DNA from: Roseomonas sp.
Lineage (GTDB): Bacteria > Pseudomonadota > Alphaproteobacteria > Acetobacterales > Acetobacteraceae
Direction: 5' to 3'
DNA length: 58,557 bases
Assembly (NCBI GenBank): GCA_040398485.1
Contig: JBBAUC010000001.1
Coordinates: 1 to 58,557 of the forward strand
Part shown: in pieces, positions 10,135-31,673 of the stretch
Layout: each line of letters begins with the position of its first letter
Position numbering within the stretch: position 1 is the stretch's first letter
Translations under genes and position numbers: made by a program
Notes under the pieces: model-generated
Databases searched by the model: none
What the model was told of the DNA's origin: nothing
The model's input: the letters and a program-made list of their open reading frames with translations, nothing else

Positions 10135-11043
10135 ATGGCCGCGTCCGGAGATTTTCCAAGCTGGGAAAGGGATGGGCGCGATTGGCCGAGCCGGGAATCG
10201 AGCCAGTTTATCGAAGCCGGCGGGCTGCGTTGGCATGTGCAGCGCATGGGGCAGGGGCCTTGCCTTTTGTTGCTGCATGGCACCGCGGCGGCCACGCATA
10301 GCTGGCGCGATCTGGCGCCATTGCTCGCGCCACATTTCACGCTTATTGCGCCAGATCTGCCGGGGCATGGCTTTACTGCCAGCCTGCCGCAAGCTCGAGT
10401 TTCACTGGCGGGTTTTTCGGCGGCCTTGCATGCACTGCTGCAGAAGCTTCAGGCCTCACCCGATGTGGTGCTTGGCCATTCGGCGGGGGCGGCAATTGCG
10501 CTGCGTATGGCATTGGATGGTACCATCGCGCCCCGCGCCATCTTCAGCCTGAATGGTGCATTGCTGCCGTTGGGTGATGAGCATTCGGCGTTTTTCACGC
10601 GGGCCGCGCAGTTGATGGTGGGCTTGCCCTTTGTTTCTAAGCTTTGCGCCTGGCGCGCTTCAAAGCAGGAAGTGGCGGCAAAGCTGCTGCGTGATACGGG
10701 TTCTGATATCGGGCCGCGCGGTGTGGAATTATACACGCGGCTTTTTGGCTATTCTGGGCATATCCGCGCGGCGCTGACGATGATGGCGCAATGGGAATTG
10801 CGCCCTTTGCTGCGTGATTTGCCGCGTCTTGGCACAGCGCTGTTCCTGATGGTGGGCAGCCGCGATCGCGCCGTGCCGCCCATGCAGGCGCGGCGCATCC
10901 AGGCCATCCTTCCCGCCGCACGCATCATCACCCTGGAAGGGCTTGGCCATCTGGCACATGAAGAAGCGCCGGAACTGGTCGCTGATGCGCTGCGTAAGGA
11001 ATGGTCGCGCCTTGCGCAGAATGTCACCGGGGCGGCAGCATGA
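10135..11043 (+). CDS. bchO: Alpha/beta hydrolase BchO
   Basis: W...GRDWP, LLHGTAAATHSW, GHSAG nucleophile elbow, GHLAHEE; follows bchD. Confidence 0.9.
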   Translation: MAASGDFPSWERDGRDWPSRESSQFIEAGGLRWHVQRMGQGPCLLLLHGTAAATHSWRDLAPLLAPHFTLIAPDLPGHGFTASLPQARVSLAGFSAALHALLQKLQASPDVVLGHSAGAAIALRMALDGTIAPRAIFSLNGALLPLGDEHSAFFTRAAQLMVGLPFVSKLCAWRASKQEVAAKLLRDTGSDIGPRGVELYTRLFGYSGHIRAALTMMAQWELRPLLRDLPRLGTALFLMVGSRDRAVPPMQARRIQAILPAARIITLEGLGHLAHEEAPELVADALRKEWSRLAQNVTGAAA

Positions 11044-12338
11044 GCTTCGATAACGTGCTTCCCCCATCCTATGCCAAGCGCGTCGAGTTGAATGATGAGG
11101 TGCATGCGCGCCCGCCGGAGATCCTTTTTTCCCCTAGCCGCGTTTCGCAGATTGCGTTGTTGCCGACAGCCGATGAAGCGCGGGATGCGCCCTGGGCTGC
11201 ACTTTGCGCGCTGGCGCAGCGCTTTTCCGTGCCGCCGCCAGCGCCAGGGGCCAATCATTACAGTGCGGATTTCGGGCCGTTTCGCCTGAAATGGGAAAGG
11301 CATGGCGAATTCAGCCGCTTCATGGTGGTGGTTGCGGGCGCAGAGCCCGAGCCTTTTTCGGCAGCCGCGATTCACGCCCTGCCAGCGGAATGGCTGAAAG
11401 TCTTGCCAGGTCAGGTGATCGCTGCCGCACATGTCACGTTGCTGGCTTCCAAGGATGTACCGCTGGCCATCAGTGAAATCTCGCGGCGTTATTTTCGTGA
11501 TCACATGCTGGTGGGCGGTCCACTGGCTGGCGGCCAAGCACATGCCTTCACGGATTTTCGCATCCAGGATGATGGTTTCAGCCGTTTCCTGATTTATGAT
11601 GGCGGCATGTCGCCCTATCAAGCGGGGCGGCTTACGCAGCGCCTGCTTGAGATGGAAACCTACCGCATCATGGCGCTGTTGGCGCTGCCGGTCGCGCAGG
11701 AAGTAGCGCCGAAAATCGGTGCGCAGGAACGCGAATTGGCGGAAATCAGCGCGGCGCTGGTGGAAGCGCAGGAAGCGGATGAACCGTTGCTGCTGCAACG
11801 CCTGACGCGCATGGCGGCGGAAGCGGAAAGCCGCGAATCGCGCCATCGTTTCCGCTTTTCCGCCGCCGCCGCCTATTACGAATTGGTCCGCAACCGCATT
11901 CAGGAGTTGCGGGAGACGCGCATGGAAGGCATGCAGACCTTCGGTGAATTCACCGAACGTCGCCTGGCGCCGGCCATGAATACCTGCCAGGCGGTCGGCG
12001 CACGGCAGGAAATGCTCTCCCAACGCGTGGCCCGCGCGACGCAACTTCTCTCCACACGTGTTGATATTACGCGAGAAAGACAGAACCAGGCCTTGCTCGC
12101 TTCCATGGAACGGCGCGCGCGCCAGCAGCTTCGGTTGCAGCAGGCGGTCGAAGGGTTTTCCGTGGCCGCCATCACCTATTACGTGGTTGGGCTTGTTGCC
12201 TATTTGGCCAAGGGTTTGGCCATTTCTGGGGCCAACTTCCGCGAAGAAATCGTCACCAGTATCGCCATCCCAGTCGTTGCTTTGGTTGTGGCGCTTGGTG
12301 TGCGCCGCTTCCGGCGCCGGACGGCAGAAAATGACTGA
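11040..12338 (+). CDS. DUF3422 family membrane-anchored protein
   Basis: EVHARP, LKWERHGEF, GRLTQRLLEMETYR, LLSTRVDI and QLRLQQAVEGFSVAAITYY motifs; two C-terminal TM helices. Confidence 0.82.
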   Translation: MSFDNVLPPSYAKRVELNDEVHARPPEILFSPSRVSQIALLPTADEARDAPWAALCALAQRFSVPPPAPGANHYSADFGPFRLKWERHGEFSRFMVVVAGAEPEPFSAAAIHALPAEWLKVLPGQVIAAAHVTLLASKDVPLAISEISRRYFRDHMLVGGPLAGGQAHAFTDFRIQDDGFSRFLIYDGGMSPYQAGRLTQRLLEMETYRIMALLALPVAQEVAPKIGAQERELAEISAALVEAQEADEPLLLQRLTRMAAEAESRESRHRFRFSAAAAYYELVRNRIQELRETRMEGMQTFGEFTERRLAPAMNTCQAVGARQEMLSQRVARATQLLSTRVDITRERQNQALLASMERRARQQLRLQQAVEGFSVAAITYYVVGLVAYLAKGLAISGANFREEIVTSIAIPVVALVVALGVRRFRRRTAEND

Positions 12339-13429: not shown

Positions 13430-13472
13430 TGTCAAGATAACTGGACAATCAATAAGTATCAAAAAACTTACA
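13430..13472. promoter_or_regulatory. Tandem PpsR/CrtJ boxes upstream of crtE
   Basis: Perfect TGT-N12-ACA (TGTCAAGATAACTGGACA, 13430-13447) plus AGT-N12-ACA (13455-13472), 7 bp apart, in an AT-rich intergenic region. Confidence 0.8.
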
Positions 13473-15573: not shown

Positions 15574-15617
15574 TGTCAATTTGACTTGACAGAGACAAGC
15601 GTCACAGTAGAGTTACA
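15574..15617. promoter_or_regulatory. Tandem PpsR/CrtJ boxes of the bchC promoter
   Basis: TGTCAATTTGACTTGACA (15574-15591, perfect, containing TTGACA) and CGT-N12-ACA (15600-15617), 8 bp apart, the classical bchC arrangement. Confidence 0.88.
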
Positions 15618-19115: not shown

Positions 19116-20552
19116 ATGCTTGTTCTCGATCATGATCGCGCCGGTGGCTACTGGGGGGCGATCTATGCTTTCTCGGCGGTGCGCGGCCTGCGTGTTGTGA
19201 TTGATGGGCCGGTTGGTTGCGAAAACCTGCCCGTGACAGCCGTGCTGCATTACACGGATGCGCTGCCGCCGCATGAATTACCAATTGTGGTGACTGGTCT
19301 GGATGAGGACTCACTCTCCCAGAACGGTACGGAAGGCGCTTTGAAGCGCGCCGCTGCCACGCAGGATGCTGAATTGCCCGCCGTGGTGGTGACGGGTTCC
19401 ATCGCCGAAATGATCGGCGGTGGCGTGACGCCGCAGGGGAGCAACCTGCAGCGCTTCATCTGCCGCACGATTGATGAGGATCAGTGGCAAGCCGCTGATC
19501 GGGCCATCATGTGGCTTTGGACTGAATTTGGCGCGCGCGGCCGCAAGCCGAAGCCGCGCACGCGCAAGGAAGGCGAAAAGCCACGCGTGAACATCATTGG
19601 CCCCATCTATGGCACTTTCAATATGCCATCAGACCTCGCGGAGATTCGCCGCCTGGTCGAAGGCATTGGCTGTGAGATTAATCTGGTCTTCCCGCTGGGC
19701 AGCCATGTCGAGGATATCTCGAAGCTGCCTGATGCAGATGTGAATATCTGCATGTACCGCGAATTTGGCCGCAAGCTTTGTGAAGAACTCGAACGGCCGT
19801 ATCTGCAAGCCCCAATCGGGTTGTTTGCGACGACGAATTTGCTCCGCAAGCTTGGTGAATTGACTGGGCTGGATCCGGAACCTTTCATCGAACGTGAAAA
19901 GCACACCACGGTGAAGCCGCTTTGGGATTTGTGGCGCAGTGTGACGCAGGATTTCTACGCCTCCGCATCCTTTGCGGTGGTAGCGACCGATACCTATGCC
20001 CGGGGCCTGCAGCGTTTTCTGAATGAAGAAATGGGCATTCCCTGTGCCTTCGCCTTCTCACGCATGGCAGGGCAGAAGCCTGACAATGCGGCGGTGCGTG
20101 AGGCTTTGCGCAAGACACCTCCCTTGGTGCTGTTCGGTTCCTATAATGAACGCATGTATGCAGCGGAAATCAAAAGCCGCGCCATGTATATTCCCGCGAG
20201 TTTCCCCGGCGCCATCATCCGCCGCGCCACCGGCACGCCTTTCATGGGCTATGCCGGCGCCACCTATATCATCCAGGAATATTGCAACGCGCTGTTTGAC
20301 GCGCTGTTTCATATTCTGCCGCTGGGCACTGATCTCGATCGGGTTGATCCAACGCCGGCACGTGCCGCTGAACCCTGGGATGCAGCCGCGGTTACGCTTC
20401 TGGATGAACGCGTTGAGCAGGAGCCCTTCCTGCTACGTATTTCCGCGGCCAAGCGGCTGCGCGAACAGGTTGAACGCGCCGCGCGCGATGCGGCGGAGCC
20501 GCGTGTGACGGCTGATCGCGTTCGAAAGACTTTGGCGGAGGTCATGGCATGA
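19116..20552 (+). CDS. bchZ: Chlorophyllide a reductase subunit Z
   Basis: [33 protein letters not shown] and a C-terminal PCP_red-like W...A...P...RISAAKRLR segment. Confidence 0.96.
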
Positions 20553-20712
20553 AGCCGCTTCGCTATTCCTCATCTTGTCTGCGGGCGTACCGCGGCAATC
20601 GCCGTCGGGGCGTATCCGATGACAAGAAGGCTTGGGTGGAATTCCGCCTCTGCCGTCCCTGCCGCGCGGGTGGACGCGGTAATGGCCGCAAGGCCAAGTC
20701 GGAGGTCTGCTA

Positions 20713-20889
20713 ATGGCCGATACAAGAACGCGCCTGACAGAAGCTCAGGCGAAGGAAGTCCACAACTTGGTGGCCCAGGGATGGGCTTTCTCAATCTTCG
20801 CTTCGATGGGCGCGCATGTCCTGGTCTGGTTGTGGCGGCCGCTTGTCTTTACCGGACAAGTGGTTCCACCCGACTGGCGTTTCTTCTGA
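20713..20889 (+). CDS. pufB: Light-harvesting LH1 beta subunit (58 aa, below the ORF-track cutoff)
   Basis: Translated by hand: MADTRTRLTEAQAKEVHNLVAQGWAFSIFASMGAHVLVWLWRPLVFTGQVVPPDWRFF. Has LTE..AKE.H and AH...W.WRP motifs, a GGAGG RBS, and sits before pufA. Confidence 0.92.
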   Translation: MADTRTRLTEAQAKEVHNLVAQGWAFSIFASMGAHVLVWLWRPLVFTGQVVPPDWRFF

Positions 20890-20942
20890 AGGATGTTCCG
20901 GGTTGAGGGATTTTCCCGACATCTGGAACGAGGAAAAGGAGA

Positions 20943-21131
20943 ATGTTCAATATGCATAAGATTTGGATGGTGATTGACGCTCGTCGTGTCGGGTTTCTCG
21001 GCGCGGCGGGTGTGGTGGCGATCGCGGCAGTGATTCACTTCGCTGTGCTGAGTTCGCCACGCTACTGCGATCATCTCGGTTGGTGCGCAACTTCACCGAC
21101 CTTCACCCCTGGCGCGAAGCTGGGTGGTTGA
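20943..21131 (+). CDS. pufA: Light-harvesting LH1 alpha subunit (divergent)
   Basis: MHKIW...D.RR N-terminus, TM helix with A.VIHFAVLSS (BChl His), AAGGAG RBS, between pufB and pufL. Confidence 0.88.
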   Translation: MFNMHKIWMVIDARRVGFLGAAGVVAIAAVIHFAVLSSPRYCDHLGWCATSPTFTPGAKLGG

Positions 21132-24244: not shown

Positions 24245-24297
24245 CCGGGACTTCAATATGGTGTTTCATGTTAGATAATATGCAGTCTGAAACGAGC

Positions 24298-25809
24298 ATG
24301 ATGGAAAGCACCAAAGACCCGCGCCCGCATGCGATTGTGATTGGCTCTGGTTTTGGTGGCTTGGCGGCAGCTGTTCGGCTTGGTGCGCGTGGTTGGCGTG
24401 TGACAATCCTTGAAAAGCTTGATGCGCCAGGTGGGCGCGCTTATGTTTTTCGTCAGGATGGTTTCACTTTTGACGCCGGCCCCACTATCATCACCGCGCC
24501 CTATTTGCTGGAAGAACTCTGGTCGCTCGCCGGCCGCAAGCTTGCGCAGGATATTGATCTGCGCGCGATGGACCCCTTCTATCTGATCCGCTTCGATGAC
24601 GGCGACGTGATGCGCTGTTCCGCTGACCTTGATGTGACGCGGGCCGAGGTCGCGCGGATTGCGCCGCAAGACAGTGCAGGCTTCGAGCGTTTCATTCTTG
24701 AAAGTGAACGCATCTTTCGCGTGGCCTTCGCCGATCTGGCCGATAAGCCCTTTCATAGTCTTGCAAGCCTGATCAGTGCCGCGCCGGATTTGATCCGGCT
24801 GAAGGGCTATCGCACCGTCTATAGCCGCGTCTGTGATTACTTCACCAGCGACAAGCTGCGCGTTGCCTTCAGCTTCCACCCGCTGCTGATCGGCGGGAAT
24901 CCCATGACCACCACCGCCTATTACTGCCTGATCGCGCATCTGGAACGGCTGCATGGTGTGCATTACGCCATGGGTGGCATGGGCGCGTTGGTTCAAGGCA
25001 TCGTTGATCTCGCGACAAGTCTGGGTGGTAGCATTCGCTACAATACCGAAGTGAAGCGCATCACCACCGAAGGCCGCCGCGCAACAGGCGTTGAGCTGGC
25101 CGACGGTGAAAGGCTTGCCGCCGATATCGTTGTCTCCAACGCTGATGTTGCCTGGACTTACAGCAAGCTTCTGCAGGATTTCCCACGTCGGCGCTGGACT
25201 GATCGCAAGATCGCGCGGGCGCGTTATTCCATGAGCCTTTTCGTCTGGTATTTCGGCACCAAGCGCCGGTATGATGATGTCTATCACCACACCATGGTGC
25301 TCGGGCCGCGCTACCAAGAATTGCTGCACGATATCTTCACGCGCAAGCACCTCGCAGAAGATTTCAGTCTTTACCTGCATCGCCCGACCGCGACGGATGA
25401 CTCAATGGCGCCGCCGGGCTGTGATTCCTTCTACGTTCTCGCCCCCGTGCCGCATTTGGGCGGCAAGGTAGATTGGGCCAAGCATGCCGAACCCTATCGC
25501 AAGGCCATTGAAAAGCGCCTGGAAGAAACAGTCTTGCCGGGCCTTGGTGAGGCGCTTGTCACATCACGCATGATCACGCCGCAGGATTTTCAAGATAGGC
25601 TGCTATCGGTGAATGGCGCTGCCTTTGCGCTGGAACCACAGCTTTTCCAAAGCGCCTGGTTTCGCCCGCATAATGTGAGCGAAGAAGTGCAGGGGCTTTA
25701 TCTTGTTGGTGCCGGCACGCATCCGGGCGCGGGTGTCCCGGGCGTGATTTCCTCAGCCAAGGTCTTGGATCAGCTTGTGCCGCATGGTGATACGCTAAGG
25801 CGAAGTTAA
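24298..25809 (+). CDS. crtI: Phytoene desaturase
   Basis: FAD motif IVIGSGFGGLAAA, FDAGPTIIT, SLYLHRP, YLVGAGTHPGAGVPGV; start uncertain (24280-24301). Confidence 0.95.
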   Translation: MMESTKDPRPHAIVIGSGFGGLAAAVRLGARGWRVTILEKLDAPGGRAYVFRQDGFTFDAGPTIITAPYLLEELWSLAGRKLAQDIDLRAMDPFYLIRFDDGDVMRCSADLDVTRAEVARIAPQDSAGFERFILESERIFRVAFADLADKPFHSLASLISAAPDLIRLKGYRTVYSRVCDYFTSDKLRVAFSFHPLLIGGNPMTTTAYYCLIAHLERLHGVHYAMGGMGALVQGIVDLATSLGGSIRYNTEVKRITTEGRRATGVELADGERLAADIVVSNADVAWTYSKLLQDFPRRRWTDRKIARARYSMSLFVWYFGTKRRYDDVYHHTMVLGPRYQELLHDIFTRKHLAEDFSLYLHRPTATDDSMAPPGCDSFYVLAPVPHLGGKVDWAKHAEPYRKAIEKRLEETVLPGLGEALVTSRMITPQDFQDRLLSVNGAAFALEPQLFQSAWFRPHNVSEEVQGLYLVGAGTHPGAGVPGVISSAKVLDQLVPHGDTLRRS

Positions 25810-27335
25810 GCGCGCCCCGCCCCAATCCTAATCGCACCGCGCGCGCCGGCCCAATCTTCCAAAAGCCGCGCTGCGGCAATGCGCCCAGACATCGCCGCCA
25901 TGGGAATACCAGGTCCGGGATGCACTGAACCGCCGGCCAGATATAGCCCCTGCAAGCGCGTCACCGCACCCGGGCGCGCGAAAGTTGCACTTGAGCCATG
26001 GCCAGCGCGGCCATAAAGCGCACCACCTGAACCCGGGAAAAGCCGCGCGAAGCTTTCCGGCGTGGTGACAACTTCGTCACCTGCGTTGCGCGTCACGTCC
26101 AGACCACAGGCTTTCAGCAGGCCAAAGCCACGTTCACCAAGTTCAGCGACCTCATCAGGCGTATGGCCGCGCTGATCACCATCAGGCGGCGCATTGATCA
26201 AAACGAGCATGCGTTCCGGCGTGCCCTGGGCGGGGCCAGGCCCGGCTTCGCGATCCTGCGCGCAAATATACACTGTCGGTGCGGCGGTGATGTCTCGCCT
26301 GCGAAAAATAGCGTCGAATTCCGCCGCGTAATCCTCGGCGAAAAAAACATTGTGATGCACCAGCGGAAAACCAGAAGTAGGCGCCTTCACGCACCAGGTG
26401 ACCGCGGAAAGGGACCGCGCGGCGCGCGGCGTATCCTCGGCAGCGTTGCGTGGCGCTTGCCCCAAAAGGCTCTGCGCCAAGGCCGCCACATCGCCATTGA
26501 AGACCACGGCATCGGCGGGGATTTCCTCGCCATTCGCCAAGCGCACACCGCTGGCGCGGCCTTGGCGGCTCAGAATCTCAGCAACCTCGGCCCCAAAGCG
26601 GAATTTAGCACCTTTGGCTTCCGCGAGGCGTTGAACTGCATCCGCCACGCGCCGCATGCCGCCATGCACGAACCACACGCCATCCTGTTCCACATGCGCC
26701 ACCAGCATCAGCGTGGCCGGCGCCAACCAGGGGGAGCAGCCGCAATAGGTTGCGTAGCGCCCGAATAGCTGGCGCAGGCGCGGGTCGCGAAAATGCTCGC
26801 CTAAGGCATCCCACAGCGTCTTCATGGGCGCGGTGCGGATCAGCGCGGCGATATTCGTGATGCCAACGCGCTTGACCAGATCAAGCGGTGATGGGCGTTC
26901 GGCGGCAATGAAGGAACCGCGTAGCGTGCGGAAGATATCGGCGCTGCGCGCGCAAAAGGCGCGATAGCCGCGCGCCTCGGCGGCTCCCGCAAAATCACCG
27001 ATGGCATCAGCGGAACGTGCAATATCGGCGAAAAGATCAAGCCTGCCGCCAGCGCGCCAGGCATGCCGCGCCAGGATATCTGCTTTTTGTAAAGGCAGCG
27101 CAGCTTCAAGGGAGGCACCGGCATCCGCAAATAGCCCCTCAAAAATCCAGCGCATGGTAAAAACCGTGGGGCCGCCATCAATCGGGCTGCCGCCTACCAT
27201 CACTTCGCGCATTTTGCCGCCTGGTGCTGCGGCGCGTTCCAACACCGTCACCGCCGCACCGCGCCGCGCAAGATCAGCGGCAGCGGCAAGCCCGCCCATG
27301 CCGGCGCCAATCACCAATACGCGTGGGGCAGCCAT
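25806..27335 (-). CDS. crtD: 1-hydroxycarotenoid 3,4-desaturase
   Basis: VIGAGMGGLAAA, DGGPTVFTMRW, LFGRYATYCG.SP, LVHHNVFF, GGALYG, GGSVHPGPGIPMA. Confidence 0.92.
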   Translation of the reverse strand: MAAPRVLVIGAGMGGLAAAADLARRGAAVTVLERAAAPGGKMREVMVGGSPIDGGPTVFTMRWIFEGLFADAGASLEAALPLQKADILARHAWRAGGRLDLFADIARSADAIGDFAGAAEARGYRAFCARSADIFRTLRGSFIAAERPSPLDLVKRVGITNIAALIRTAPMKTLWDALGEHFRDPRLRQLFGRYATYCGCSPWLAPATLMLVAHVEQDGVWFVHGGMRRVADAVQRLAEAKGAKFRFGAEVAEILSRQGRASGVRLANGEEIPADAVVFNGDVAALAQSLLGQAPRNAAEDTPRAARSLSAVTWCVKAPTSGFPLVHHNVFFAEDYAAEFDAIFRRRDITAAPTVYICAQDREAGPGPAQGTPERMLVLINAPPDGDQRGHTPDEVAELGERGFGLLKACGLDVTRNAGDEVVTTPESFARLFPGSGGALYGRAGHGSSATFARPGAVTRLQGLYLAGGSVHPGPGIPMAAMSGRIAAARLLEDWAGARGAIRIGAGRA

Positions 27336-27336
27336 G

Positions 27337-28080
27337 TTACGTTGCAGCGCTTAGTCGCCGACTGCGCCCGGCGAATTGCCGATCCACCACGCGGCGATGC
27401 CAAATTATCAGCGAAACACCCACGACCAACGGCACCGCCCACATGAAGGGATTAAGCGCCAATTCCGGAAAAATCCTGACGGAACCAAAGGCCATGAAGG
27501 CGGTGTAAACTGATATGCCGGCACCCACCAAAGCCTTGATATGTTCCTTGATCCAGGAACCTGGCCCTGGTTCGCGCGCCATCAGGAACCACAGGTTTGT
27601 CGCCGCCGTCGCCAGGCCCACCATGCAAATACCGATCATCAGCGGCTGACCAATCATCCAGCCCTGCCAGGCGCAATTCAAGGAAGCCGGAATCAGCGCA
27701 TATTGCAGGAAAAGATTGAGCCTTGTGCGATTCAATTCATGCCGGCGCTTGTTGCGAATGGAAAGCCAGCCATACCAAGCAAGGTTCACCGTCAGCAGCC
27801 CGGTCATCAGCATCATCCAGCCGAAAATGCCGCGGATGAAAGCCTCATCAAACCGGCCTTCCAGATGTGGGTGTGTTTCAATTGGCGCTGCCAGGGTCAG
27901 CAGACTCATGATCATGGCAAGGCAGCCGGTGATCAGCAGCGCGAAGGTGAAAACCTTTCCCCAGCGTGCGTGATTGACGCCGCCCTTGCGCCCGATCACA
28001 GGCACCCAGAAAGCGATGGCGCCAATGCTGCCCGTCACAATATGGGCGGCAACCAGCGCATGGAACAGGAACAGGACCAT
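27337..28080 (-). CDS. Multi-pass membrane protein (DUF2306-like), first gene of the crtD transcript
   Basis: HIVTG, RKGGVNHARWGKVF and WIKEHIKALVGAGISVYTAF motifs; about 7 hydrophobic segments; stop codon 1 nt before the crtD ATG; GGAGG RBS. Confidence 0.75.
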   Translation of the reverse strand: MVLFLFHALVAAHIVTGSIGAIAFWVPVIGRKGGVNHARWGKVFTFALLITGCLAMIMSLLTLAAPIETHPHLEGRFDEAFIRGIFGWMMLMTGLLTVNLAWYGWLSIRNKRRHELNRTRLNLFLQYALIPASLNCAWQGWMIGQPLMIGICMVGLATAATNLWFLMAREPGPGSWIKEHIKALVGAGISVYTAFMAFGSVRIFPELALNPFMWAVPLVVGVSLIIWHRRVVDRQFAGRSRRLSAAT

Positions 28081-28102
28081 CCGAGCCTCCCCAGCATTTA
28101 GG

Positions 28103-28146
28103 TGACAATTGCACTTGACATATATGGATGTAAAGCGTGGAAATCA
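28103..28146. promoter_or_regulatory. Tandem PpsR-like boxes in the divergent membrane-protein/P450 promoter
   Basis: TGA-N12-ACA (28103-28120, containing TTGACA) and TGT-N12-TCA (28129-28146), each one mismatch from consensus, 8 bp apart as at bchC. Confidence 0.65.
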
Positions 28147-28219
28147 GCTCATGTCAGGTCAAGGCATAAACAGCGCGCTTCCCCAAAGCGGCGCAGAGAT
28201 GGGTGAGGGCAGGGGGGGC

Positions 28220-29605
28220 ATGAATCACGCGCTGACCTTCCGCGCTTTTGCGCCGCCGCGCCCGGAACCCTTGCCCGCGGTCATTGCGCTGATGCGCTGC
28301 ATGATCCGCGGCGATGGAGATTTGCTCTCGCTTTTGCCGGCGGAAGCCTATCGCATGCCGATCGGGCCGCTGGGTTATTCCCGCCGGTCCACCATCATCG
28401 TCAATCGCCCCGATCTGGTGCGCGAAGTGCTGACTGATGCCAAGGGCATCCTGCCCAAAAGCGATCTGATGGTACATGCGCTGGATCCCTTGATTGGCGA
28501 TTCGATCTTTGTCTCCTCCGGCGCTACCTGGCGGCGCCAGCGGGCCATGATTGACCCGGCCTTGACAATGATGCGCGTCAACCGCGCCTTTCCCGCCATG
28601 GAAGCTGGCGCGGCGGCGGCGGAAGCAACCCTTGCCGATCATGCCGCGCGCGATACGCGCTTTTCGCTTGACCTGATGATGAGCCACATGACGGCGGATA
28701 TCATTTGCCGCACGGTGTTCTCCACCGGGCTCGAGACGCGTGTGGCGCATGAGGTCTTCGATGCCTTCACGGAATTCGAACATAGCGTCGCGCAGGTGGA
28801 AATCCGCCGGCTAATTTTTGACCGCGCCTGGAAGCGCATTCCGCAAAAGGAAAGCGTGCTGAATGCTTGCGGCCTGATCCGGCGTTATTTGGGCGAATTG
28901 CTGGATACGCATTTGGGCGATGGCGCCACCAGCTTTGACGATATCGCGAGCGCGATCATCGCCGCGCATGATGTGGAAGGCAAAGCCTTCACGCGCGAAG
29001 AATTGATTGATCAGCTTGGGGTTCTTTTCCTGGCCGGGCATGAAACCAGCGCCAGCGCACTAACCTGGGTGTTTTATCTGCTCGCGACGCAACCCGCTTT
29101 GGTCGCAAGGTTGCGCGCTGAAATTGATGAAATCGTTGGACCCGGCCCCATCCTGTTTGAACATACGCGCAAGCTTTTGTTTGTGCGTAATGTGTTTCGT
29201 GAAACGCTCAGGCTTTATCCACCCATCACCTTCCTGCCGCGCGTCGCCAATGAGGCAACGCGGATCGGTGACTACCCGGTTAAGAAGGGCGCGCTGATCA
29301 TGGTGGCACCTTGGGTGCTGCATCGGCACCAGGCCTATTGGCGCGATCCGCATTTGTTTGACCCAGACCGATTTCTGCCGGAACGCGAAGCGGAGATGAC
29401 CACGGGCGCCTATATTCCCTTCGGCATCGGCCCGCGGGTTTGCGCGGGTGCTGCTTTTGCACAGGTGGAAGCGGTGCTGCTGATTGCGCGGCTGTTTCGC
29501 CATTTTGATTTCCACATCGAAGCGCCTGGTGATGTGCGCCCCGCCGCGCGGCTCACCACGCGCCCGGCACGGCAGGTGATGTGCCGCGTCACCCGCGCGG
29601 CATGA
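28220..29605 (+). CDS. Cytochrome P450
   Basis: I-helix FLAGHETSA, ExxR (ETLR), FDPDRF and heme ligand PFGIGPRVCAG. Confidence 0.95.
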   Translation: MNHALTFRAFAPPRPEPLPAVIALMRCMIRGDGDLLSLLPAEAYRMPIGPLGYSRRSTIIVNRPDLVREVLTDAKGILPKSDLMVHALDPLIGDSIFVSSGATWRRQRAMIDPALTMMRVNRAFPAMEAGAAAAEATLADHAARDTRFSLDLMMSHMTADIICRTVFSTGLETRVAHEVFDAFTEFEHSVAQVEIRRLIFDRAWKRIPQKESVLNACGLIRRYLGELLDTHLGDGATSFDDIASAIIAAHDVEGKAFTREELIDQLGVLFLAGHETSASALTWVFYLLATQPALVARLRAEIDEIVGPGPILFEHTRKLLFVRNVFRETLRLYPPITFLPRVANEATRIGDYPVKKGALIMVAPWVLHRHQAYWRDPHLFDPDRFLPEREAEMTTGAYIPFGIGPRVCAGAAFAQVEAVLLIARLFRHFDFHIEAPGDVRPAARLTTRPARQVMCRVTRAA

Positions 29606-30726
29606 CGGGCAATGTGCTGCTGACACTCGGGCGTCTGCCCAAAGCGCTGGATGTGGCGCGCGGCTTTGCTGATCTTGGCTGGCGCGTGGTGGTGGCGGAA
29701 CCCTTCAAGCGCCATCTGGCGGGCGCGTCCCGCGCGGTGGCGCGTAGCCATCGCGTGACGGCGCCGGCGGAAGACAAGCAGGCCTATCTGGCCGACCTCA
29801 GGCGTATCATCGCGGATGAGAAGATTGATCTTGTCGTGCCGGTTTCGGAAGAAACCATGCATGTCGCCTTTCTGCGCGATGGTCTGCCTGCCACCACGGG
29901 GCTTTTCACCATGCCGCCCGAGAATTTGCTCCGCCTACACAACAAGCATGGCTTTGCGCAGCAGGCATTAGCTTGGGGCCTTGCCGTGCCGGAGACCCAT
30001 GCGCTCGGCGATCCAGCGGCCGAGGCTTTGGTGCAATCCGGCCCAGTGGTGGTCAAGCCGGTGCATTCCTGTTCCGGTCGCGGTGTGCGGCTTTTGCCCG
30101 GCGGCAGCGCCTTGCCCGCGCCTGATCCCGCGATTCCCACAATTGTGCAGCGCTGTGTGATGGGCGCGGAATATAGTTCGTGCTCCATCGCGCATGATGG
30201 CCGCGTTGCCTCCACCGTTATCTATCGTGCGGCGCAGAAATCAGGTTCGGTCGCGGTGGCCTTTGAACGGGTGGAACATCCTGCGATTGCCGATTGGATC
30301 ACGCGTTTCATCGCCGCCGCGCAATGGACTGGCTTCGTCGCCTTCGACATTATGGTGGATGAGGCGGGTCAGCCTTGGGGGATTGAATGCAATCCGCGCA
30401 CGACAAGTGGCCTGCATTTCTGGCAGCGCGAAGATATCGCGCGCGCCATTGTGGAACCGGGCTTCATCCCGCGCTATCGACCTGAAACACGCTTGCAGCA
30501 ATTCTATTCGGCGTTGACGGAAACGCAGATGTCGTTGTTCCGGCGCGGCCCGTTTCGCGAAAATCTGCGCCAATTGTTTTCTACGCGCGACGTCACTTGG
30601 GACCGGCGGGACCCCATGCCCTTCCTGACCATGACAGCAACGTCATGGCCCATCATCCGCATGGCCATGGCGCGCGGTGTACCCTTCGGGGAAGTCGCGA
30701 CACTTGATGTCGGCTGGTATGATTAG
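29602..30726 (+). CDS. ATP-grasp domain protein
   Basis: LHNK, VVVKPVHSCSGRGV, IVQRCVMGAEYS and AFDIMVD....WGIECNPRTTSG motifs; ATGA overlap with the P450 stop. Confidence 0.85.
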   Translation: MTGNVLLTLGRLPKALDVARGFADLGWRVVVAEPFKRHLAGASRAVARSHRVTAPAEDKQAYLADLRRIIADEKIDLVVPVSEETMHVAFLRDGLPATTGLFTMPPENLLRLHNKHGFAQQALAWGLAVPETHALGDPAAEALVQSGPVVVKPVHSCSGRGVRLLPGGSALPAPDPAIPTIVQRCVMGAEYSSCSIAHDGRVASTVIYRAAQKSGSVAVAFERVEHPAIADWITRFIAAAQWTGFVAFDIMVDEAGQPWGIECNPRTTSGLHFWQREDIARAIVEPGFIPRYRPETRLQQFYSALTETQMSLFRRGPFRENLRQLFSTRDVTWDRRDPMPFLTMTATSWPIIRMAMARGVPFGEVATLDVGWYD

Positions 30727-31673
30727 CCTCGCGCCCGCGGCACCTTGAAGGGCAGCATCAGCGCTTGCACCGCCAGATTGTCAAAGCGGTTCAGCGCCAG
30801 GCTTTCATGTACGGCAACAGCGTTCTGCCCCAGAAGCCGCGTGCGGATTTCGGATCGCGTATAAAAGGGCGCATCCACCAAAGCGCGCACCAGCTCTGCC
30901 TTGCCATCCTCGGACCGTGTCGGGCGCGGCACGCGCCAAAACCCAGGCGGAATGGTGGCGGGCGCGGGAATTGGCATATCCGCGACTTCTCCGGCGCGGT
31001 TCACTTGAAGCGCCAGGGATTGCGCTGATCCATCGCGCCGCGATGCATTGTATAAAATCGCGGTCGCTTCCGGCATGGGCGCGCGGCACCAATCCCAGAA
31101 AAGGAAATCCTCTTCCAGCGGCGCAGTGCCGGTATTGGTGTCAAAATATGAAAAGCCGGACCAACGCAATGAAGGATTGTCAAACGCCACTTCCACGCGG
31201 GAACGAGGCGCAATCGGCTGCCAATGATGCCGCCCCGCGCCATCCAACTGAAAGTGGCGATGCGATAACGCTTCGGGGTAAAGCGTCACGCGCCCGCGCA
31301 GGCGGCCAGGGATAGGTGCGGTGATCTCCGCCAATTCCACTGTAAGTTTGCTGCCATCCCATCGCATGGCACTCGGCCCGATCTGCAGAAAATCCGCGCC
31401 ACGCCGCAAAGCACCCCGCGGGCGATCCGTCATCGCCCAGCGTGCGGGCTTGCCGTAAAGCGCCACATGCATGCAGCAATGGTTCAGCGGATCACCGCCA
31501 CCACCGCGCCGCGCAAAGGCGTACCAGGGGGAAAACACCGTGCCCAGAAAGGCAATGATGGTGATCCCATGCGCGCCATCATCGGATAGCGCATCCAAAT
31601 ACCACCAGCGATAACCGCGCTCAGCCACGGGCAGGGTGAAATCCAAGCCCGTCGCGCTTAAACCTTCATTCAT
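30723..31673 (-). CDS. crtC: Carotenoid 1,2-hydratase (hydroxyneurosporene synthase)
   Basis: GYRWWYLDALSDDG, IAFLGTVFSPWY, HHWQPIAP, YFDTNTG..PLE, DAPFYTRS, VHESL. Confidence 0.93.
   Translation of the reverse strand: MNEGLSATGLDFTLPVAERGYRWWYLDALSDDGAHGITIIAFLGTVFSPWYAFARRGGGGDPLNHCCMHVALYGKPARWAMTDRPRGALRRGADFLQIGPSAMRWDGSKLTVELAEITAPIPGRLRGRVTLYPEALSHRHFQLDGAGRHHWQPIAPRSRVEVAFDNPSLRWSGFSYFDTNTGTAPLEEDFLFWDWCRAPMPEATAILYNASRRDGSAQSLALQVNRAGEVADMPIPAPATIPPGFWRVPRPTRSEDGKAELVRALVDAPFYTRSEIRTRLLGQNAVAVHESLALNRFDNLAVQALMLPFKVPRARG

Follow-up and report, generated by a model that had tools for sequence, protein, structure and literature searches.

In the Roseomonas sp. contig JBBAUC010000001.1 (Acetobacteraceae; positions 1 to 58,557 of the forward strand, the whole 58,557-nt stretch being referred to here as the window), three genes encoding a membrane protein (MP), a cytochrome P450 and an ATP-grasp enzyme lie within a photosynthesis gene cluster, between the carotenoid genes crtD and crtC. 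These genes form a conserved cassette that is confined to phototrophs among the genomes searched, and the cassette very probably acts on the photosynthetic carotenoid. The reading that we prefer has MP forming an aldehyde on an in-chain methyl group, the P450 forming a terminal carboxylic acid and the ATP-grasp enzyme forming an amide; we infer every substrate and product in it, and we rate the three assignments taken together at slightly under an even chance.

Among 151 Acetobacteraceae genomes, 42 of which carry pufM, the 15 with an MP orthologue are also the 15 with a P450 orthologue, every one of them is pufM-positive, and neither gene occurs in any of the 109 genomes without pufM; two further matches to MP in this family are weak and partial. 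The ATP-grasp gene keeps to the same genomes: in the 34 Acetobacteraceae phototrophs tested, an orthologue was found in 14 of 14 with MP and in none of 20 without it. MP is also found by itself in a second family (f130), with sources named Erythrobacter, Blastomonas, Parasphingorhabdus, Alterisphingorhabdus and Sandarakinorhabdus. Here 20 of 301 genomes encode an MP homologue (34-46% identity), all 20 are pufM-positive, none of the 234 genomes without pufM has one, and none of the 20 carriers has a P450 or ATP-grasp orthologue. The MP gene lies directly after pufC in seven of these carriers and away from crt, bch and puf genes in the other 13. In two Blastomonas-type genomes (G552 and G731; loci L087 and L088), crtD-crtC lies away from puf and MP directly follows pufC.

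The same dependence on phototrophy is seen within a single genus (g319), whose MP proteins are named Erythrobacter. Full MP is encoded in 67 of its 76 phototrophs and in none of its 15 non-phototrophs, far from the photosynthesis cluster and in varying chromosomal contexts, and a pufM-negative member (G864) retains a remnant (L218:3634-3877) that covers only residues ~1-45 and 193-235. Five further g319 genomes keep MP and have no P450 orthologue (0/5). We considered MP as a partner of pufC and rejected the idea, since g319 carriers lack pufC while five of the six MP-negative g319 phototrophs that were fetched possess it. A profile search for a hidden, distant MP in 80 genomes, 74 of them MP-negative phototrophs, returned weak partial hits in two only, and a class-wide sample gave a match in four of 400 genomes, too sparse for further tests.

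The first-pass annotation had proposed a carotenoid-tailoring module linked to photosynthesis, a proposal that would sit badly with homologous trios found mostly outside crt loci. The neighbourhoods bear the proposal out, as homologues adjoin crt, bch or puf genes and were not found in non-phototrophs. In a genome survey of 47 loci found via the ATP-grasp protein, 45 contain a crt gene and the remaining two are contigs of less than 2.7 kb; 28 of the 47 are close relatives (at least 89%), and the others include Sphingomonadales, Hyphomonadaceae and Rhodospirillales, with differing crt neighbours. A metagenome survey comprised the best 80 of 477 matches to MP. Within this set, crt, bch or puf genes are present in 58 of 60 loci of at least 4 kb, the ATP-grasp gene in 49 of 49, and the P450 gene stands divergently upstream of MP in all 66 loci with at least 700 bp of upstream sequence, an arrangement that is therefore more than chance. 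The ATP-grasp gene follows the P450 gene with overlapping or close starts. A plasmid search gave only one hit, at 27%, in Hymenobacter, and we found no paper assigning a function to these three genes in a literature search whose coverage left out most subscription journals.

Some of these loci have unusual surroundings. In L196 the cassette lies beside divergent crtB (38%) and crtI (44%) genes that are not photosynthesis-type copies, and a lycopene-cyclase-like gene is found near the cassette in L026, L031 and L196. Two freshwater metatranscriptomes (small shares of 0.06 and 0.09) hold contigs over MP and P450, with little over ATP-grasp and crtC; such contigs cannot show transcription and were not used as evidence.

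The window is itself a photosynthesis gene cluster, in which the gene order is pufLMC, crtI (+), crtD (-), MP (-), P450 (+), ATP-grasp (+), crtC (-) and fba. The features of the cassette and its flanks are as follows.

24268..25809, plus strand: crtI, phytoene desaturase, a flanking gene convergent with crtD (TIGR02734, 620 bits).
25806..27335, minus strand: crtD of a cassette-specific clade, here 'CrtD2' (NF045637, 691 bits, above the cut-off of 580).
27337..28080, minus strand: MP, a helical, DUF2306-like membrane protein of 247 amino acids (aa), proposed in-chain methyl oxidase (open reading frame, alignment and AlphaFold2 model).
28103..28120, no strand assigned: PpsR/CrtJ-type palindrome TGACAA-N6-TTGACA in the divergent MP/P450 promoter region.
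28220..29605, plus strand: cytochrome P450 of 461 aa, proposed terminal-methyl oxidase (PF00067, motifs, own orthologous family).
29602..30726, plus strand: ATP-grasp enzyme of 374 aa, related to PRK06849, proposed acid-amine ligase (PF02655; NF005315 below its cut-off).
30723..31673, minus strand: crtC, carotenoid 1,2-hydratase, the convergent flank (NF045922, 294 bits, below the cut-off of 400).

The three genes are intact; they had been described as tightly packed among crt genes, and every junction is as claimed. The MP open reading frame (ORF) ends 1 nt before the crtD start at 27335, the P450 gene is oriented divergently from MP, the P450 TGA and ATP-grasp ATG overlap as ATGA (29602-29605), and the stop codons of the ATP-grasp gene (30724-30726) and crtC (30723-30725) share bases. 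The P450 start is most likely the ATG at 28220, where its homologues begin, rather than the TTG at 28109 chosen by the ORF caller. GC content at third codon positions is alike in the cassette (0.69) and its neighbours (0.63-0.71). The reported lack of an adjacent ferredoxin or reductase gene also holds: the 2Fe-2S ferredoxin family PF00111 has no match in the window and six on other contigs of the genome, and no conserved redox partner recurs among 1424 ORFs neighbouring cassette loci elsewhere. The commonest neighbour of the cassette, at 16 loci (e.g. L059:13512-13946) and often between crtI and pufC, encodes a small membrane protein that we take from its translation to be YqaA/DedA-like.

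The crtD gene beside the cassette is itself distinctive. CrtD2 is the sole crtD match in the Roseomonas genome, and the 24 CrtD rows adjacent to MP group as a single clade, separate from 36 other rows, with a Shimodaira-Hasegawa-like approximate likelihood ratio (SH-aLRT) of 100; our trees of crtD and MP are quick ones with no bootstrap, and omit crtD rows shorter than 430 aa as well as rows at least 90% identical to the window, two of these excepted. In genomes with both crtD copies (L058-L061, L105, L117), the ordinary, crtC-linked copy lies on long branches, of up to 1.13, as if it were under relaxed selection where CrtD2 coexists.

The promoter region shared by MP and the P450 gene carries a candidate operator. 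The PpsR-type site at 28103-28120 has one mismatch to a TGT-N12-ACA-type palindrome, scored against what we take to be the PpsR/CrtJ consensus, and is among the three best sites of the 58-kb window; the other two lie at 13430-13447 and 15574-15591, upstream of crtE and bchC. A similar palindrome precedes MP in 69 of 92 cassette loci versus two of 21 loci in which no P450 gene was seen; under the two match rules used, the background in random 200-nt windows is 1.4% and 3.2%.

In the mechanism that we propose, MP would oxidise the in-chain methyl C-19' to an aldehyde, and the P450, using a general ferredoxin encoded elsewhere, would oxidise the terminal methyl C-16 to a carboxylic acid. The ATP-grasp enzyme would then turn the acid into an activated acyl-phosphate and couple an amine to it, giving an amide, while CrtD2, which would often replace ordinary CrtD, would desaturate the modified end. 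The expected product is an acid resembling gemmatoxanthin, together with the corresponding amide, and it would be bound in the reaction centre-light-harvesting 1 complex (RC-LH1). Step by step, we regard an aldehyde from MP as evenly balanced, a terminal acid from the P450 as just short of that, and an amide from the ATP-grasp enzyme as a distinctly more tentative assignment.

The aldehyde assignment starts from an orphan reaction. Gemmatoxanthin of G. phototrophica bears a 19'-aldehyde and a 16-acid, and no enzyme is known for the C-19/C-20 oxidation of carotenals (PMC8342508). The pathway to bacteriorubixanthinal has been called poorly characterised (PMC12696874), and this carotenal is made by E. 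litoralis (PMC6627997). E. litoralis has an MP homologue (P0406, 42% identical). Bacteriorubixanthinal shares with gemmatoxanthin the half that bears the methoxy, 3',4'-didehydro and 19'-aldehyde groups, so that an aldehyde-only producer has MP only; an MP that works alone would explain why Erythrobacter, with an aldehyde only, keeps MP only. For the orphan oxidation represented by bacteriorubixanthinal, gemmatoxanthin, lycopen-19-al and rhodopinal, MP, which occurs in E. litoralis and in a Gemmatimonadales metagenome-assembled genome (MAG) and follows phototrophy, is a candidate for the step and not a homologue of a known enzyme.

Across an alignment of 52 MP homologues, H13 and H180 are invariant and H37 and E179 are kept in at least 90%, and all three histidines are retained in 51 of 51 rows of the core and outer relatives, which suggests a cofactor site. 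The AlphaFold2 model is all-helical (predicted local distance difference test, pLDDT, 93). Searches of this model against solved structures (Foldseek, VIA), which bear on a fold like that of di-heme cytochrome b or heme A synthase, returned only generic helical bundles (best Z 9.4), and sequence searches of the PDB returned nothing for MP and nothing for the ATP-grasp enzyme. PF10067 (DUF2306) has no hit to the window MP and matches 27 of the 52 homologues weakly (E up to 1, best 6.5e-5); an Atlas model of one homologue (P0426) shares the fold of a DUF2306 cluster, with template modelling scores of 0.66/0.76 that pass the naming bar, and UniRef labels several MP homologues DUF2306. The core MP clade (31 rows, SH-aLRT 98) unites the cassette and Sphingomonadaceae proteins with those of a Gemmatimonadales MAG and a Nannocystaceae MAG, and the outer relatives include Idiomarinaceae and Thalassotalea proteins. 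The Nannocystaceae MAG homologue is P0423; phototrophic Myxococcota are known from the literature. MP likely binds heme or a metal via H13, H37 and H180 and works alone.

Known proteins offer two partial parallels for such an activity. By analogy, heme A synthase (CtaA/Cox15) is a histidine-rich integral membrane protein that converts a methyl to a formyl group, as we propose for MP; no sequence or fold match between the two was found. One DUF2306 protein has been characterised, PraC of fungal pramanicin biosynthesis, where an epoxidation depends on it (PMC12895699). A preprint counts DUF2306 among the families predicted to bind heme (10.64898/2025.12.11.692455). PraC resembles MP in being a DUF2306-like multi-pass membrane protein encoded in a biosynthetic cluster and linked to an oxidative step on a hydrophobic chain; it differs in being fungal, 393 aa long and tied to epoxidation, whereas MP forms its own clade of phototroph proteins, and the two are likened by description.

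Catalytic motifs had been noted as intact in the P450 and the ATP-grasp enzyme, and alignments of their orthologues and homologues agree. The P450 scores 252 bits against PF00067 (cut-off 22.8), its AGHET, ExxR and PFGxGxRxCxG motifs are invariant in 26 orthologues, and orthologues are 57-99% identical, with the next matches at no more than 38%; no NCBIfam P450 model reached its cut-off with the window protein. Its best PDB hit is the plant carotene ring hydroxylase CYP97A3, which with CYP97C1 belongs to the same broad P450 class. We rejected kinship to CYP97 as non-specific: an unrelated second P450 of the Roseomonas genome (G000:C15:3607-5073, 29% identical to the window P450) scores 174 bits to CYP97A3 versus 178. 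No lycopene cyclase is among the genes identified in the window cluster. This second P450 type (29-35%) recurs in Roseomonas-type genomes (L110-L114), in two cases beside a lipid acyltransferase-like gene. Conversion of a terminal methyl to an acid, as we propose for the P450, is carried out by CruH, the synechoxanthin methyl-to-acid oxidase, and by CrtP/CrtNb with AldH in C30 acids, although these belong to other enzyme classes.

The ATP-grasp enzyme falls within its superfamily (PF02655, 27.2 bits, cut-off 23.2) and below the PRK06849 equivalog model (NF005315, 244.9 bits, cut-off 406). All of 50 aligned homologues keep K152, D249 and E262-C-N-P-R266, and the model (pLDDT 94) matches PurK, PurT, GAR synthetase, L-amino acid ligase and PylC at Z 22-25. 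In PurK, PurT, PylC and L-amino acid ligases, a carboxylate is activated so that an amine can attack it. PRK06849 proteins, PylC and L-amino acid ligases share their fold and the ExNPR motif with the window enzyme, for which acyl-phosphate chemistry would be expected; no carotenoid role has been described for the PRK06849 proteins, and the window enzyme scores outside that family.

Two published gene tables list similar arrangements. In G. phototrophica, the producer of aldehyde plus acid, a hypothetical gene of MP size (750 bp, 249 aa), a candidate counterpart, lies 7 bp upstream of a 463-aa P450 gene, and the pair sits ~2 kb from crtI, between clpP and clpX (PMC11406998, Table S1). In Sediminicoccus KRV36, a 744-bp hypothetical gene diverges from a P450-ATP-grasp pair, and the trio, matched to the cassette by layout and length only, is 144 kb from crtC with no crt neighbour (PMC10949492, Table S3). 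RNA-seq data in the same source lend independent support: two hours after a shift from dark to light the three genes change by log2 -2.0, -2.3 and -1.3 (false discovery rates 3e-6, 0.005 and 0.023); crtC also falls (-1.5), and three other P450 genes do not.

The cassette product had also been tentatively matched to an unusual light-harvesting complex 1 (LH1), and within Acetobacteraceae a link between cassette and LH1 stands. The LH1 beta and alpha proteins of the window (20713-21131) are atypical, alpha containing YCDHLGWC with two Cys and beta ending in PPDWRFF, and of the loci or genomes examined such an LH1 was seen in 12 of 13 that bear the cassette, versus none of eight cassette-less Acetobacteraceae phototrophs. 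The match is not obligate, since LH1 is ordinary in the cassette-bearing locus L135 and in five Sphingomonadaceae genomes that have MP only. P. ruber has MP, and its LH1 is blue-shifted, at 856 nm (PMC12654162). The association may reflect shared descent of one cluster lineage. Between bchZ and pufB, at the position of pufQ, the window also holds a conserved 54-codon Cys/Arg-rich ORF (20549-20713). Elsewhere in the cluster, a membrane-anchored protein that is presumably DUF3422-like (11001-12338) is encoded between bchO and crtB, and is found beside bchO in many related clusters. Two pufM copies per genome occur in G661, G736, G796 and G844 (genus g346) and in G117, G136, G874 and G911.

Several observations weigh against the proposed assignments. 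Our tallies overstate the association because related genomes are not independent. MP and the P450 occur without the ATP-grasp gene in one genome (G509), 47 of the 67 f130 phototrophs lack MP, and so do nine of the 76 in g319; among these nine, five of the six fetched (L219-L221, L223, L224) carry a different, pufC-bearing photosynthesis cluster, and two of the remaining are fragmented assemblies. At metagenome loci CrtD2 follows MP in only 42 of 68. E. litoralis is the only named MP carrier with a carotenal on record in the literature examined, no such record was found for carriers in Blastomonas, Sandarakinorhabdus or Parasphingorhabdus, and none of the pigment records of cassette strains includes an aldehyde. 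We know of no natural carotenoid amide, and the carotenoid acids known to us are esterified with sugars, not amidated. Carotenals typically give a single broad band; the carotenoid peaks of KRV36 cells, at 483/508/540 nm, are structured, although free carotenoids of the membrane predominate in these cells. The candidate pair of G. phototrophica is not light-regulated with puf. In KRV36 the ATP-grasp gene no longer shows the change at 4 h (-0.1), and two genes close to the trio drop by ~0.7 at single time points (PMC10949492). Extracts of 'Ca. Phycosocius spiralis', which may or may not carry the cassette, were read as spirilloxanthin from spectra alone (PMC10008586).

One of these points is better accommodated by the strongest rival, which we consider improbable, namely that all three enzymes act on one carbon: MP would form an alcohol or aldehyde at C-19', and the P450 would carry it further to the acid, from which the ATP-grasp enzyme would make an amide, ester or lactone, leaving no aldehyde in cassette strains. 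The distribution data are the same for both readings, and the finding that the P450 never occurs without MP in the 151 Acetobacteraceae genomes is as expected if MP makes its substrate; the structured KRV36 spectrum fits a product without an aldehyde better. Against this rival, the aldehyde of gemmatoxanthin is retained and its acid lies at the opposite end of the molecule, and the crt genes of G. phototrophica have beside them the candidate pair of an MP-sized gene and a P450 gene.

Less probable still is a non-catalytic MP that serves in carotenoid binding, carotenoid delivery or RC-LH1 assembly, leaving the chemistry to the P450 and the ATP-grasp enzyme. Such a role would suit the seven f130 loci in which MP directly follows pufC, and the company of unusual LH1 and cassette in Acetobacteraceae, and the PraC authors allow for a scaffold role (PMC12895699). 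Against it, most phototrophs searched assemble RC-LH1 without MP (74 were MP-negative), MP is found whether or not pufC is present and alongside ordinary as well as unusual LH1, and its invariable histidines point to a cofactor.

The first-pass annotation had cast MP as a heme-binding electron donor or scaffold for the P450, and we now think a heme b donor or membrane scaffold unlikely. The divergent pairing at 66 of 66 loci, the lack of a recurring ferredoxin or reductase nearby, the conserved histidines and the predicted heme binding of DUF2306 are all in keeping with it. MP is nevertheless kept where the P450 orthologue is missing (20 of 20 and 5 of 5 genomes tested) and, being lost with photosynthesis yet independent of the P450, is poorly explained as its donor; ferredoxin-domain genes are moreover encoded elsewhere in the genome.

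It is less likely again that the cassette acts on C30 diapocarotenoic acids, the bacteriochlorophyll tail or a membrane lipid rather than on a C40 carotenoid. The Roseomonas genome has a separate crtN/crtP-type C30 carotenoid acid cluster (G000:C5:7348-16651; from the translations, two crtI-like genes, an acyltransferase, a glycosyltransferase, hpnCDE-like genes and an aldehyde dehydrogenase), a possible source of a carboxylate, and light harvesting by a C30 dioate is reported for Roseococcus thiosulfatophilus (PMC12654162). Distant ATP-grasp relatives (32-35%; L106-L108) also lie in clusters that, by gene labels we presume from translations, are of a fabH-SDR-MBL-adenylate-forming type, a context not present in the window. 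The cassette instead moves among C40 crt genes (crtI, crtD, crtC, crtF and crtB), has its own CrtD clade and was not found in non-phototrophs, all of which speak for a C40 substrate. Finally, it is very improbable that the P450 replaces CrtA in forming a 2-keto group, as had been suggested, or is a CYP97/CYP175-like ring hydroxylase, and nothing positive was found for a replacement of CrtA. In line with these readings, the genome gave no match to CrtA (NF045923, for which the control set was also silent) and the best PDB hit is CYP97A3. Against them, the CYP97A3 match is shared equally by the unrelated P450, a ketone would give the ATP-grasp enzyme no substrate, and MP would be left unexplained.

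We regard the cassette as opening a new branch in the tailoring of carotenoids, for which two of its enzyme classes have so far not been described. In its boldest form, which we consider unlikely but worth stating, MP would be a carotenal synthase of a new class of His-ligated membrane oxidases that makes bacteriorubixanthinal and gemmatoxanthin, and the full cassette would yield the first amide carotenoid, in the blue-shifted LH1 of freshwater Roseomonas-type bacteria. Cross-conjugated carotenals harvest light in abundant aerobic phototrophs, and the proposal names one gene, that of MP, for the origin of their aldehyde; this gene is present in a tractable genus, so the question is testable by one deletion. 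If the proposal is true, it would give a DUF2306-like family a bacterial function and link a P450 to the formation of carotenoid acids; amide formation would be added to carotenoid chemistry as well, should the ligase step hold. Freshwater Roseomonas-type genomes and metagenome contigs commonly carry the cassette, so a pigment not yet described may have a wide distribution.

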